A stretch of DNA of 64,000 nt from Candidatus Uhrbacteria bacterium. Lineage in GTDB: Bacteria > Patescibacteriota > Patescibacteriia > UBA9934 > GWF2-40-263. Every line of letters begins with the position of its first letter. Position 1 is the first letter of the stretch. The notes under the pieces are model-generated. The model was given only the letters and a program-made list of their open reading frames with translations, did no database searches and was not told where the DNA came from. Below, one piece after another: positions 17,469 through 26,008 of the stretch. A program made the translations under genes and the position numbers. The DNA lies in contig JABMNY010000003.1 of assembly GCA_013204385.1 (NCBI GenBank), forward strand, positions 14,270 to 78,269, in the 5' to 3' direction.

Positions 17469-18865
17469 AAAATGGCATTTTCTCGCACCCAACGCTGAAG
17501 GACATATGTTGCACGTACATCATCCTCATTATATTCCAAAATTTTCTGCAACACTTTAGGTTTCTTTTTTTGTAGCCATTCTTCAAACCAAAGGACAGAA
17601 TTGGCTCCGCCTGCATCCTCTGCCCGCCAAGAAAAACCGATATAGGCAGCAATATCTTTTAACGAATAGGACGAGAGAGGGAAAATAACGGTTGGACGGA
17701 TAATGGAAAGCAAATCAATCATATTCGTCTCAAGTGCCTCACGCGCAATCTCTCCAATTCCATATTTCGCCCCAAAGCGACGGACGACCTCTTCTTCAAA
17801 CCATCCGTAATGATAGATTGGGGAATCAATATGACGTTCAATAAAATGGACAAACTCTGCCCACATCTCCCCTTCTTTTTCTGGAGACTCTGCAAAAAAT
17901 GAATGATAAACCTCCTCTTTCTCACTTACCTCCAACACCCCAAACAAGTAATCAAAATCCCGAAGCGGATCACTTTCAATATCAAAATAAAGTTCCGTTC
18001 CGGCTTCTGGTAAATGCGCAGTTCCTCGAATGATGTGGCGACGCTCTGTAAGTGCAATGGCTTGATCACGCATCATTTCAAGTCGCGATGAACTAACGTC
18101 TGGAGCAAGCGATTCTAGCTGCGTCACAGACATCAACGAGAGCTTGGCGATAGTGGTCACCCCCGCTTCTGCAAGCCGATGAACTTCCTCTCGCCAGACA
18201 CGATTCAGCAACGATAAATCATCACAACTCTCTGATTCATTTTTACATTCCTTCTGCCAAGGAGATTGCTTACACCCACTTGTCATAAAATGAGCTGGAC
18301 GCGCCCCAGAAATGATCTTCTCAATCTCTGTAAGCGTGAGCTCATACTCTGCCTCAAACTCTTCAATGAGATACGGAAATGTTTCGTTGTCCGGGGAGAC
18401 CACATACCCTTGAACAGGTCTCACTCCCTGAAGAGACTCGAGAAGCTCCGCATAAAAACAACCTTGAAACTTAAACTCATCTCGCAGAAAGCGCGAGCGC
18501 TTCATGTCTGCAGCCACGTAGTAAAAATTTCCAAGTCGTGAACGACCTTCAACTTTCTCAAGCACGTCCGGATGCCCTACCCAATGCTTATCAATCAGCA
18601 CACCATGATAAATGGTTTGACGCCCCTCTCGCATAAATGCGAGCGTTTGTTTGAAAGCTTCCTCTGGATCCTCTGCCGTTACTTCTACGAGATCTTGTTT
18701 ATCTGAAAGTAAATCACGCTCCTTTTCCTCAATAAGGCCATCGTCTTGAAGTTTTGCCATCAGCACCTCATGCGGTCTTGGCTCTCCAGAATGTGTATCA
18801 AAATACACCCAATTTGGACATTTGAGATATTGATAAAACGTCTTTTCCGTAATTGATCCATGCAT
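17465..18865 (-). CDS. TM0106-family RecB-like nuclease with C-terminal RNase H-like domain
   Basis: GHPDVLEK...YVAADMK PD-(D/E)xK-like core; LYFDIESDP, YSLKDIA, YNEDDV exonuclease motifs. Confidence 0.8.
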   Translation of the reverse strand: MHGSITEKTFYQYLKCPNWVYFDTHSGEPRPHEVLMAKLQDDGLIEEKERDLLSDKQDLVEVTAEDPEEAFKQTLAFMREGRQTIYHGVLIDKHWVGHPDVLEKVEGRSRLGNFYYVAADMKRSRFLRDEFKFQGCFYAELLESLQGVRPVQGYVVSPDNETFPYLIEEFEAEYELTLTEIEKIISGARPAHFMTSGCKQSPWQKECKNESESCDDLSLLNRVWREEVHRLAEAGVTTIAKLSLMSVTQLESLAPDVSSSRLEMMRDQAIALTERRHIIRGTAHLPEAGTELYFDIESDPLRDFDYLFGVLEVSEKEEVYHSFFAESPEKEGEMWAEFVHFIERHIDSPIYHYGWFEEEVVRRFGAKYGIGEIAREALETNMIDLLSIIRPTVIFPLSSYSLKDIAAYIGFSWRAEDAGGANSVLWFEEWLQKKKPKVLQKILEYNEDDVRATYVLQRWVRENAIL

Positions 18866-18909
18866 ACACGCATTATAGCAGAGTCTTCTAAAATTTGGAG
18901 CATGTTGAG

Positions 18910-18938
18910 TTGACAATTTTGGCTATTTTCCCTAGATT
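18910..18938 (+). promoter_or_regulatory. sigma70 promoter of the E2-E1-Ubl operon
   Basis: TTGACA-17 bp-TAGATT. Confidence 0.65.
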
Positions 18939-18984
18939 ATGGAGTCCGAGTGAAATCGGAACGTTCTTTTACAACGGAGAACCC

Positions 18985-20406
18985 ATGCCCCAAAATACCG
19001 AGATCGATCAATTTCTCACGAGACCGCTTCACAAAGCGTTTCTTGTTCCAGAAGTCTATGGACTTGAACAAAGAGAAGCTCTCATCACAGCTGGATTCAA
19101 AACCAGCTTGAAGACTGCGCGCAGTGGTCACTTCGCTTTTCGTGCACTGTGCATTTACATCGGTCGTCGAGGAAACGCACGACTGCAACGATTGCAATCA
19201 GCCATCAAGATCATATTCGACTCGACCGATAAGCTCGCAAGCTTTGAAGGACGCATCGTTGATCAGATTCTGCCCATCATCGCTCCGAGCGATGTTACGG
19301 TCCATATTGATCAGACACAACGAAATGATTCGACTGGAAACGATCCGACGGAAAAAGCGCTAAACGCTTATCTTCCGATCCTGACACGATTGGCTCAGAT
19401 TTCCGGGCTCAGTGTGGAATTCCATGTTCCACAAAAAGAACGGCTTCACTCACCCCATGCATCCGACGGTGTGATCCATATCTACGCCAACGCCTGCCCA
19501 CCTGGAGAATATCAATCTTGGTATGTCGATACGGCATTTGGACTCACGATTGCTCCTGCATCAAAAGACCGGCCTGTCGGCTATGGCCCAACACAAGGAA
19601 GAGGAATTGTTCTGAAGGATGCAGATGAAAAAAATCTTGTTCAAATTCTCGAAGACACTTGGTACCTTCTCATTCCAACGCTTGGAATCTTCAATCCTTT
19701 GACGAGTGTCCAGATCTTCGAGCAATTGCTCGCGCTCGGTTGGGATGCGAAGCGCACGGGAAAGCCTACTGCCCAAAAACCTCTTCCGTGCACGAAATTT
19801 CTCCGAAAAGCTCGTACATGGATCGAACCGTTTGCGGATGGCGCTACGGAAAATGCACGCAACTGCGAAGAAGAGATCAAGCGATTGCATGCAAGGCTCG
19901 CAGAGAAAACGCGCGAACTCGTTCTCTGGAGAGGTATGGAAGAAGCTCTGAAAAAGACATCGTATTCTCGCGCAACCAAAAAACGGCTTCCAAAGGATCT
20001 TCAGATCATTCTCAATCTTCCGGATGTTGATCGCCTGGAACTCTTCGAGGATGCCATGCATGTGTGGACACGTCCTCTTGTCATCATTCATGAACTCGAG
20101 GCGTATCTCGCAGGAACTTTTGTTATTCGTCTCAACAAGGAAGGTGGTGTAACCGTGTGGAGTGAAGACTCCACCCATCCAGACGGGGTTCCTCATCCGC
20201 ATATCGCCAAGCATGGCGGTCCTTGCTTTGGAAACGCTGGAACAGCCATAGCTAAAGCTGGAGGAGAGGCGCGTTACGCAGATGCTGTAAAGCATGTCCT
20301 CACCTGGCTGATACTTGGTTACACACCAAATCTGGCAACAGTGAAAATTGAAGCATGGCCGAAAGTCCCAAGCATGGAGAACTCCGATGCAACCTCCCCC
20401 TCCTGA
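18985..20406 (+). CDS. Unknown N-terminal domain, coiled coil and putative prokaryotic E2-like (UBC-fold) C-terminal domain
   Basis: SD GGAG before ATG 18985; heptads ARNCEEEIKRLHARLAEKTRELVLW; GTFVIRL...PHPHIAKHGGPCFGN resembles the E2 HPNI-G-IC active-site motif; lies directly upstream of E1 and Ubl genes. Confidence 0.6.
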   Translation: MPQNTEIDQFLTRPLHKAFLVPEVYGLEQREALITAGFKTSLKTARSGHFAFRALCIYIGRRGNARLQRLQSAIKIIFDSTDKLASFEGRIVDQILPIIAPSDVTVHIDQTQRNDSTGNDPTEKALNAYLPILTRLAQISGLSVEFHVPQKERLHSPHASDGVIHIYANACPPGEYQSWYVDTAFGLTIAPASKDRPVGYGPTQGRGIVLKDADEKNLVQILEDTWYLLIPTLGIFNPLTSVQIFEQLLALGWDAKRTGKPTAQKPLPCTKFLRKARTWIEPFADGATENARNCEEEIKRLHARLAEKTRELVLWRGMEEALKKTSYSRATKKRLPKDLQIILNLPDVDRLELFEDAMHVWTRPLVIIHELEAYLAGTFVIRLNKEGGVTVWSEDSTHPDGVPHPHIAKHGGPCFGNAGTAIAKAGGEARYADAVKHVLTWLILGYTPNLATVKIEAWPKVPSMENSDATSPS

Positions 20407-21052
20407 CCGTTCCATGAACTTTGATCAACAAGATGAGCTCTTTGATCCCGCACTTGCACGACCTGTTACCGTCATTGGTGCAGGGTCTGTTGGTGGTGAA
20501 GTGGTGGTCAAACTCTCTCAAATCGGAGCAGTGAATATCCAAGTTTGGGACAATGATGATGTAGCTTCACACAATATTCCTATGAGCGTCTATCGGATCA
20601 AGGACCTCGGTCGTTATAAAGTCGATGCTCTCAAGGAGATTGTAAGAGAAAAAAGTGGAATAGAGATCAGAACTCACCTGAAAAATTGGACGAGACAGCC
20701 CCTCAGGGATTCCGTCATTTGTTGTGTTGATTCCATGGATGTTCGTTGCGATGTCTGGGGGATCGTACGAGACAATCCACTCATCGATGTCTTCATTGAC
20801 ACACGGATCGCAAAAGAATTCGTCGTGGTCTATGCCATCAACCCCACAGACCCAGTACAGATCGCGTTTTACGAATCGCGATTGTACTCCTCAAGCGAAG
20901 CGGTAACGCCAACATGTGGAGACCATGGCATAACCTATGTCAGTAGTATCGCCGCCAGTGCAGCTATTGCACGATTGACGAATTCGTGGAAAGGCGGTAC
21001 AAATTCCCCACTATTTGAGATGTTGGTGGGTAACCTCCTTCAAATCACCTAG
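20387..21052 (+). CDS. E1/ThiF-family adenylating enzyme
   Basis: VTVIGAGSVG (GxGxxG), VWDNDDVASHN, KVDALK, CCVDSMDVR, FIDTR, candidate catalytic Cys in TPTCG; start 20387 or 20414. Confidence 0.88.
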   Translation: MQPPPPDRSMNFDQQDELFDPALARPVTVIGAGSVGGEVVVKLSQIGAVNIQVWDNDDVASHNIPMSVYRIKDLGRYKVDALKEIVREKSGIEIRTHLKNWTRQPLRDSVICCVDSMDVRCDVWGIVRDNPLIDVFIDTRIAKEFVVVYAINPTDPVQIAFYESRLYSSSEAVTPTCGDHGITYVSSIAASAAIARLTNSWKGGTNSPLFEMLVGNLLQIT

Positions 21053-21090
21053 TTCATCATGAATCGATCAAAAAGTTGCAAGGAGCCCTA

Positions 21091-21339
21091 ATGTCAGCCA
21101 CAGTCACCGTACGAGTGGTTCCGCTAAGCGGAACCCCGACCGAAGTCACCGTACCATTCAAGAAGGGAATGACCGTCAATTCGGCGCTCACCGCCGCGGG
21201 GGTCTCGAGCGACAAGCGCGACCTCTCTGTCGAAGCGGCTCCGGGCCAGACCCTCAAGTCGGGTCAGACCGTCGTCGTCACGGATAAGGTCAAGGCCGGC
21301 GGGCAGGTCACTGTCCGCGAACGTCCACAGGGGTCCTGA
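21091..21339 (+). CDS. Ubiquitin-like (beta-grasp) protein, 82 aa, C-terminus RPQGS
   Basis: SD AAGGAG; beta-beta-alpha-beta pattern VTVRVVP...TEVTV...GMTVNSALTAAG...VKAGGQVTVRER; directly after E1. Confidence 0.7.
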   Translation: MSATVTVRVVPLSGTPTEVTVPFKKGMTVNSALTAAGVSSDKRDLSVEAAPGQTLKSGQTVVVTDKVKAGGQVTVRERPQGS

Positions 21340-21382
21340 CCCTACAACAACAAGAGTGCCGTCTCCGACACTCCGCTACGCC

Positions 21383-21415
21383 CCGACCCCTCATTGAGCG
21401 GTCGGTTTTATTTTT
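21383..21415 (+). terminator. Intrinsic terminator of the E2-E1-Ubl operon
   Basis: ccgacc-cctcattgagc-ggtcgg followed by ttttattttt. Confidence 0.7.
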
Positions 21416-25459: not shown

Positions 25460-26008
25460 ATGTTAGACACAGGAACTCTGCGACTTAAATTCATCGCTCT
25501 CATCAACCGAGGGTCTGATGGACTCGACTTGGGTGCAGGTGATGGCCGTTGGGCATTCGTCGCCTCAAGTAAACAAGCTCGTGTCACAGCCATTGACCGC
25601 CAACCATCACCAGATTCGCTTCCAATCGGAATGCGATGGATTCAAGCAGATGTGTGTAATGGTCTCTCAAGCTTCTTGGAATCAAACCATTCAGGTTTTG
25701 ACTTCATGATGTGCTGGAACCTCATTCAGTTCCTTCCCCACGACTACGTGACAGACAATCTGCTTCCAAGCCTCGCTCAGTACGCACGACCCAACTGTGT
25801 GCTGGGTCTACGGACATTCTGGCGCAACCCAATTCCCGGTTTTGCAAATCCTGTCCCCTCACTCTATAGAACCAATGAACTTGTCAGGAGTCTGAAGGGT
25901 TGGGACATCATTCACAAGGAAGAAATCGAAGGTGATGGCCCAAGTCTCGATGGGACAACCATGCGTCACTGGTATTTCACCGACATCATCGCTCGCTTCC
26001 CCTCATAG
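25460..26008 (+). CDS. Class I SAM-dependent methyltransferase
   Basis: LDLGAGDGR motif I, VTAID, IQADV; SD GGAGG; TTGATC-17-TATGTT promoter. Confidence 0.8.
   Translation: MLDTGTLRLKFIALINRGSDGLDLGAGDGRWAFVASSKQARVTAIDRQPSPDSLPIGMRWIQADVCNGLSSFLESNHSGFDFMMCWNLIQFLPHDYVTDNLLPSLAQYARPNCVLGLRTFWRNPIPGFANPVPSLYRTNELVRSLKGWDIIHKEEIEGDGPSLDGTTMRHWYFTDIIARFPS

Follow-up and report, generated by a model that had tools for sequence, protein, structure and literature searches.

A stretch of 64,000 nucleotides from contig JABMNY010000003.1 of a Candidatus Uhrbacteria bacterium (the window) carries three consecutive genes that, with a probability we place at about 0.6, form a self-contained conjugation cassette of E1, E2 and ubiquitin-like protein (Ubl) that has no E3 ligase or deubiquitinase, arose by loss of a JAB peptidase and activates its tag at a C-terminal serine. 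The parts of this proposal differ in strength: we are reasonably confident that the cassette performs protein conjugation, we consider direct use of the terminal Ser by the E1 probable, and an anti-phage role, argued by analogy, is possible at somewhat less than even odds. All three open reading frames (ORFs) were confirmed on the plus strand of the window, with the following features.

18985-20406, plus strand: gene 1, 473 aa (ORF, AlphaFold2 model, fold searches)
19789..20013, plus strand: coiled-coil-like helices of gene 1, residues 269-343 (DSSP helices 269-324 and 326-343; coiled-coil matches)
19957..20370, plus strand: UBC/RWD-like domain of gene 1 with H404-P-H406-x7-C414 (invariant motif, fold searches)
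20387..21052, plus strand: gene 2, single-domain ThiF-type E1, 221 aa, or 212 aa from ATG 20414 (PF00899, E 1.7e-12)
21091..21339, plus strand: gene 3, 82-aa beta-grasp Ubl ending R-P-Q-G-S (fold searches, conserved tail)

A conserved E2-E1-Ubl operon

To place the cassette we use a tree of 57 distinct E1s of the family (6 duplicates dropped; the incomplete L016, L027, L038 and L048 and the unrelated L053 excluded), which splits 35 JAB-less rows, hereafter the clade, from the other 22 (20 JAB-bearing, 2 JAB-less) with support 100/99. The three genes travel together, as a first-pass annotation of this DNA had expected: the order E2-E1-Ubl is found in 31 of 34 related loci (7/7 from genomes and 24/27 from metagenomes), the remaining three metagenome loci end at a contig edge before the third gene, and 4 of the 24 have the Ubl cut short. 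E1 and E2 identities covary (Spearman 0.75 over 26 operons, the pairs not being independent). In two loci, L016 and L038, gene 1 is split in two ORFs, and in L038 the E1 is split too, through assembly error or decay.

Gene 1 consists of an alpha/beta domain (residues 1-101), a second alpha/beta domain (102-258), a helix pair and an E2-like domain (about 325-462); its model has a predicted local distance difference test score (pLDDT) of 91.5 and a predicted template-modelling score of 0.70. No Pfam, NCBIfam or PADLOC family scored above cut-off for this protein. A profile built from 13 close homologues retrieved 2084 representatives at E<=0.001, and we aligned 145 sequences (the query, 10 of the 12 first homologues and 134 of 147 further listed representatives, with 13 fragments or partial matches excluded). 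H404, H406, C414 (codon 20224-20226), G416 and Y446 are invariant in 145/145 of these homologues, which are the best-scoring matches, so that the alignment is biased toward motif retention. Canonical E2s have the spacing HPN-x7-C, and the HPH-x7-C of gene 1 has the same spacing. The first-pass annotation had predicted both a conserved Cys and a UBC fold here, and the domain does model as UBC/RWD-type, with moderate scores only. UbcH7 is the top Foldseek match (E 0.025, probability 0.99); many E2s give Z 5.7-6.7 (UbcH7: Z 6.7, root-mean-square deviation (rmsd) 4.0, 117 aligned residues), and RWD domains give Z up to 7.5 (Knl1 RWD: rmsd 4.6, 115 aligned). The model has no helix of at least four residues past residue 444; BubB and Cap2 are described without a C-terminal helix pair (PMC11601596). 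The remainder of the protein gave less: residues 102-258 resemble a domain of GH42-like glycoside hydrolases (Z about 7), PII-like Foldseek rows may refer to residues 1-101, an Atlas structure search gave no usable match for the N-terminal domains, and a profile search of PDB sequences returned coiled-coil noise alone among the 60 matches listed. In a comparison with Prok-E2_D, gene 1 had no Pfam match, and one weak Atlas structure row fell below the bar.

Gene 2 had been read as a ThiF/E1 with a Cys, and this stands: PF00899 scores above cut-off, and the adenylation-domain features (GxGxxG, D-x-D, N, K and a crossover-loop Cys) are present. All of the motifs that the first-pass annotation had quoted are found in the cassette (GTFVIRL, PHPHIAKHGGPCFGN, TPTCG, DQQ and HNIPMS). 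Its description of three tightly coupled genes with Shine-Dalgarno sites needs one amendment, in that the ORFs and two clear Shine-Dalgarno sites are there and the gene 2 start at 20414 has none. Gene 2 probably starts at ATG 20387, overlapping gene 1 by 20 nt, because GGAG lies 7 nt upstream of that codon and because homologues share a similar N-terminal extension, one of them having Leu at the 20414 Met; the residue numbers used here follow the 212-aa form. The candidate catalytic Cys, C168 (codon 20915-20917), coincides with the crossover-loop Cys motif when gene 2 is aligned to a HesA/MoeB/ThiF-family protein; in the same alignment NIPMS falls on NLNRQ and DTR on SGA. D46, D48, N54, K69, R111, R131 and C168 are invariant in 57/57 family E1s, and the clade E1s have a single domain, measuring 210-231 aa from just before the P-loop. 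PADLOC E1-E2 models cover just the first 120 residues of gene 2.

Gene 3 matched no family above cut-off in library scans. Its fold bears out the beta-grasp assignment of the first-pass annotation: the leading fold rows are beta-grasp domains (best Foldseek E 0.002), with RnfH at Z 8.5 (rmsd 1.6, 64 aligned), SAMP1 at 7.2 and BubA at 7.0. The model has a pLDDT of 73.3, and of about 51 in the tail. The Gly of one clade Ubl falls on position 75 of the 76 in Pfam ThiS. A tag ending at an internal VKAGG, followed by a tail, was considered and rejected because the final R-x-x-G-S is the conserved part; the internal GG is unconserved and corresponds to the turn that precedes the last strand. A 9-residue insertion at about residues 47-61 (window 21229-21273), shared with L012, L013 and L036, looks like a copy of the last-strand region and creates this misleading internal KAGG.

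We modelled the assembly as two E1 copies with Ubl, ATP and gene 1 residues 322-465. The complex scored 0.66, the best control 0.00; 116 of 157 solved pairs and 2 of 215 mismatched pairs attain this mark. Model runs share at least 97% of contacts, with partner pLDDT of at least 84. In the model, the E1 N121-P122-L123 loop packs on gene 1 residues 417-445, and the interface includes residues 417-422 beside C414.

The terminal serine and the absent peptidase

Ubls are described, in papers on Bil, Bub, Cap2 and other systems, as being activated at a C-terminal Gly exposed by a peptidase. Neither a native free Gly nor an encoded peptidase that would expose one was found here: terminal Ser occurs in 30 of the 31 complete clade tags, and no JAB was found in the genome. 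Of these tags 29 end in GS, one in SS (L108, whose P-H-S-S offers no Gly to trim to) and one in GG (P-Q-G-G); Arg at -5 and Gly at -2 are each present in 30/31. Five codons, drawn from both Ser boxes, encode the Ser (codon 21334-21336 in gene 3), and three different stop codons follow it. No JAB lies within 5 kb of the E1 in the 35 clade loci (in 21, both flanks extend for 1.5 kb or more), and none was found in the source genome or in 12 of the 14 other carrier genomes, making 13/15 in all; the JAB matches in the other two sit in second operons. Two genomes, those of L126 (G924) and L127 (G926), hold both a JAB-less operon and a JAB-bearing sister operon. The E1 carries a matching difference at position 58, which is Ser in 35/35 clade members, compared with Gln in 21/22 other family E1s and 66/68 viral E1s.

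Comparison with the nearest JAB-bearing relatives fixes the register of the tail. In L126, L127 and L047, Arg is at -5 counted from the last Gly, and their tails read R-V-A-G-G, R-V-E-G-G+C and R-L-Q-A-G+S; the clade Ser therefore occupies the position of their last Gly. A sister group (L113-L117, L121, L123 and L148-L157) keeps G-N at the last two register positions, even in long precursors, which may indicate Asn-terminated tags or a JAB specific for Asn just past its cleavage point. Outside the clade lie two more JAB-less E2-E1-Ubl operons, L083 (G306) with a tag ending NG and L125 (G885) with one ending GG; these are probably independent JAB losses.

The wider family is largely JAB-bearing. 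Weaker gene 1 matches lie in JAB-bearing operons, and a viral scan with the E1 found 259 relatives, the best 39% identical; among the 68 distinct E1s in 80 viral loci kept, 63 have a JAB and 51 an E2-like gene, and no strong gene 1 match was found in any of the 68 loci. A second E1 tree of 74 rows (16/35 clade, 32/68 viral, 3 phage records, 20 other cellular and 3 outgroups; L125 excluded) recovers the clade with support 100 and groups it with the three cellular JAB-bearing operons L126, L127 and L047 (Shimodaira–Hasegawa-like approximate likelihood ratio test values 91 and 89). By these sequence comparisons, and with moderate support, the clade likely descends from a JAB-bearing family that is common in phages, and lost the JAB itself; a phage-to-host direction of transfer is possible.

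Several relatives are of interest in their own right. A distant cluster of the family occurs in Crassvirales and Flavobacterium phages, and the 'thiamine biosynthesis protein' genes of three phages (L050-L052; PQ006092, OQ198718, KU599879) are E1s of the same subfamily, preceded by a JAB, an HSH..C-x-G gene and a possible Ubl-plus-tail gene and surrounded by replication genes. The locus L047 (G011:C5, 3938-10381, minus strand) reads AAA ATPase gene, three gene 1 paralogues, then JAB, E1 and Ubl; one paralogue has the Cys motif and two lack it. There are likewise three paralogues in L118, and two apiece in L115 and L116; an AAA gene lies just upstream in L010 too. The paralogue sets suggest that active and inactive E2-like subunits assemble into hetero-oligomers and that an ATPase may act on tagged proteins.

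A proposed pathway and the alternatives to it

We propose that the E1 homodimer would use ATP to adenylate the unprocessed Ser82 of the Ubl and that Cys168, to judge from its position and invariance, would then accept the Ubl in thioester linkage. In the model, the gene 1 E2 domain docks on the E1 N121-P122-L123 loop through helices beside Cys414, to which the Ubl would pass. The N-terminal domains and coiled coil of gene 1 would choose the target, and the tag would be discharged onto an amine, as is proposed for the Bil E2s, which have no E3. The tag would be neither trimmed nor, probably, removed, because there is no JAB in the operon or the genome. The most likely use, which we rate at a little below an even chance, would be permanent tagging of incoming phage proteins or other foreign proteins. 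More tentatively still, and rather doubtfully, the Ser-linked tag may serve as a permanent mark or as a jammer of the tagging machinery that phages carry, in a cascade of the candidate phyla radiation (CPR) derived from a family common in phages, with the eraser dropped and the E1 pocket retuned.

Several observations weigh against this proposal. The N-terminal Arg and the RQ Arg of E1s serve the ATP site; the former is Gln, His or Ala in 35/35 clade E1s (it is kept in 18/22 related E1s), and the NLxRQ motif reads NIPMS, with RQ changed to MS in 30/35 clade members and Ser present in all 35. The unusual RQ motifs flagged in the first-pass annotation are thus a property of the whole clade, and the Arg loss could mean weak or absent adenylation; that the invariant R131 stands in for the lost Arg is a guess. 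In gene 1, the E2 fold scores are moderate, all below Z 8, RWD domains score as well as UBC domains, no Foldseek match of the C-terminal domain reached E<=0.001, and C414 is a putative active-site Cys by its motif. The complex score may show likeness only, since related E1-E2 complexes are solved, and the job, with its own alignments and ATP, lay outside the calibration. Register alone is no proof that Ser is used, because BilA, with V-A-G-A, needs trimming and because in many JAB-bearing relatives the Gly is followed by a variable tail. The root of the second E1 tree was not resolved, its three outgroup rows failing to group together. Finally, the neighbours of relatives are mostly housekeeping or unnamed genes, and no defence, regulator or CapW/CapH-type family appeared at E<=1e-8 in the 81 neighbour ORFs surveyed (picked from 127).

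The tag might instead be conjugated through Gly, if a host peptidase encoded elsewhere removed Ser82 and the E1 adenylated Gly81, as in Bil after BilC. The Gly at -2 of nearly every clade tag would be explained, and there are precedents: a Bil tag ending V-A-G-A is blocked from adenylation until the JAB takes off the last residue (PMC10557695), and in UFM1 a shorter V-G tail can work, tail length varying among systems (PMC12355090). JAB-bearing relatives, too, often end in Gly plus a tail. We nevertheless consider this unlikely. No JAB was found in 13/15 carriers, including the single-contig genome G570 (non-JAB carboxypeptidases were not searched for); there would be little reason for a discarded residue to remain Ser in both codon boxes; the P-H-S-S tail of L108 fits poorly; and the Gln-to-Ser change in the E1 is specific to the JAB-less clade. 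A slightly less likely alternative is that nothing outside the cassette is tagged, the E1 lacking efficient adenylation or the Ubl being loaded only on gene 1, so that the proteins form a binding complex, a sensor or a decoy for related phage Ubl machinery. The loss of both usual Arg residues across the clade and the lack of an E3 are consistent with this, and the Cys-less gene 1 paralogues of JAB-bearing operons indicate that the scaffold has non-catalytic uses; however, the P-loop, D46, D48, N54, K69 and both Cys residues are invariant, D106 is kept in 34/35, and the Ubl tail is conserved as a substrate tail would be.

Conjugation could also serve a cellular or host-interaction purpose, acting on the organism's own or on host-cell proteins. 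The housekeeping neighbours with no regulator among them, the consensus-like promoter in many loci and the shared chromosomal slot of two distant members, L013 and L026, would suit such a role. It is disfavoured, at about one chance in ten by our reckoning of the alternatives, by the patchy distribution described below, by the empty slot in two genomes of the same genus, and by the fact that the bacterial conjugation systems of shown role act against phage, as reported in PMC11601596. Least probable, by a wide margin, is a sulfur-carrier pair of the ThiF/ThiS or MoeB/MoaD type beside an unrelated gene. The E1 is ThiF-sized and the genome has one PF00266 gene above cut-off, but the tag does not end in Gly-Gly, NCBIfam ThiF/MoeB models all score far below cut-off for gene 2, and the linkage to a Cys-bearing E2-like gene is constant. 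The first-pass annotation had noted the lack of thi partner genes, and this extends to the genome (a 97%-complete assembly), in which no ThiS-family gene was found and gene 2 is the sole ThiF. No lambdoid-tail or sulfur-relay context was seen around the cassette.

We therefore return to a Ser-activated conjugation cassette, and compare it with known systems. It is not a member of Bil, Bub, CBASS or PRTRC, in keeping with the first-pass view that its architecture matches neither Bil nor CBASS; it would work like Bil. BilABCD (type I/II) likewise has a separate Ubl, Cys-E2 and Cys-E1 and is described without an E3, its E2 being proposed to choose targets unaided (PMC10557695; PMC11601603). However, the Bil E1 is described as IAD-AAD-CYS, whereas that of the cassette has one adenylation domain; Bil has the JAB BilC, and the cassette has none. 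The cassette E2 is fused behind about 320 aa, the order is E2-E1-Ubl, the tag ends in Ser, and genes 1 and 3 have no PADLOC match. Bub types I and II share a homodimeric ThiF/UBA5-like E1 and an E2 without the C-terminal helix pair, and type II is described without a JAB, like the cassette; in contrast, Bub uses Tyr (E1) and Ser (E2) oxyesters, gene fusions and a DUF6527 protein, BubE (PMC11601596). The cassette has Cys at both nucleophile positions, unfused genes and no adjacent DUF6527; nor was DUF6527 found among the 81 neighbour ORFs of relatives. The Cap2 protein of type II CBASS shares a homodimeric E1 domain and an E2 that works without E3 (10.1101/2022.03.31.486616), but the cassette lacks the E2-E1 fusion, CD-NTase, effector and Cap3, and its substrate is a beta-grasp protein.

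Classes 6a-6e of Iyer et al. 2006, including PRTRC (6d), have stand-alone Ubl, E1 and E2, as here, and all five are listed with a JAB (PMC1779556, Table 1), which the cassette lacks. The PRTRC ThiF model TIGR03736 scores 29.2 bits on gene 2 against a cut-off of 144.75, and PRTRC protein B aligns with gene 1 over 20 columns at a probability of 3% (hhalign). For the EAD1-fused TERNS3 set, E1, E2 and Ubl are named without a peptidase, as in the cassette, and the set is distinguished, as described, by its EAD1 fusions and its place within a ternary conflict system (PMC8195603). Closest is the JAB-bearing family of coiled-coil E2, JAB, E1 and Ubl in phages and CPR, which shares with the cassette the E1 subfamily with invariant R131, an HPH..C-x-G E2-like gene and a beta-grasp tag. 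It keeps Gln58 of the E1 and, in 63/68 viral loci, the JAB, both absent from the clade, and its tags end in GG, GN, GA or NG or carry extensions, whereas clade tags end in Ser. The Crassvirales E2-like gene has weak homology to gene 1 (probability 0.7%). A full-text literature search, judged by the listed entries and the openings of abstracts, found no paper on this operon type, although the supplementary operon tables for Bil, Bub and Cap2 could list members.

Genomic setting, distribution and implications

The cassette is framed by two predicted transcription signals.

18910..18938, plus strand: sigma70-type promoter TTGACA-17-TAGATT (sequence match; recurs upstream in related loci)
21383..21415, plus strand: intrinsic terminator, hairpin at 21383-21405 with U-tract (folding energy; recurs in relatives)

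The single promoter of the first-pass annotation is present, but TTGACA-17-TAGATT alone does not exceed chance expectation (4 sites, where 5.6 are expected). What favours it is recurrence: 15 of 26 related loci carry TTGAC...YAnnnT upstream, where shuffled sequences would give 0.53, for a pattern picked post hoc after the upstream regions had been viewed. The single terminator is present too: although a terminator scan of the window did not pick it up, the hairpin folds at -13.2 kcal/mol (z -3.34), and it is present in 23/26 related loci against 2.7 expected from shuffles. In the source genome (1.05 Mb, 48 contigs, 97% complete) a divergent RNase_H_2/Cas4-like nuclease gene lies on one side of the cassette and a convergent DUF4015 gene on the other, and cassette GC is 50% compared with 46% in the flanks. 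The nuclease gene, on the minus strand and read from sequence only, probably starts at ATG 18863, with an extended -10 (TGCTATAAT) just upstream (window 18863-18881, minus strand). Elsewhere in the window, a lone S-adenosylmethionine-dependent methyltransferase-like gene (25460-26008, plus strand; Pfam matches below cut-off) runs against the local gene direction.

Named homologues belong to Patescibacteria, Parcubacteria and Candidatus Uhrbacteria, which makes a CPR host likely. Counting the source genome and JAB-bearing types, 10 of 162 genomes from the order hold a gene 1 relative, as do 21 of 401 from the class and 6 of 401 from the phylum. In the same genus, one of eight other genomes has a relative and seven gave no match; in two the flanking genes are adjacent and the slot is empty, and in four the slot holds other content. 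In L070 (1758-3368, G001) it is filled by an unrelated ORF of 536 aa that runs in the opposite direction to the flanks, and L071, L074 and L075 hold other small genes there; the slot is a variable site. Five titled metagenome-assembled genomes of 1.1-1.6 Mb that carry relatives, one labelled Binatia, two Gammaproteobacteria and two unclassified, may be CPR. A first genome scan with a single E1 query gave no match. Viral scans with gene 1 alignments and tblastn against phage records, which reach close relatives only, found no relative. Members of the JAB-less clade came from cellular genomes, largely CPR-type; three viral scans found none.

Beyond what the first-pass annotation proposed, the analysis brings out a conserved terminal Ser, a link to a large JAB-bearing phage family and a likely loss of the JAB. 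The findings indicate that phages, Crassvirales among them, and CPR share a large family of ubiquitin-type modules, one not found described in our literature search. A clade that pairs a terminal Ser with a corresponding E1 change, and that has no peptidase, makes the Gly rule testable with three small proteins. If our reading is correct, the cassette would be a minimal, eraser-free conjugation kit. On the more doubtful reading of a permanent mark or jammer, its Ser-linked tag would escape the Gly-specific JAB peptidases of phages. The same register would then suggest Asn- or Ala-terminated tags in sister phage systems, and Gly would not be universal for Ubl conjugation.

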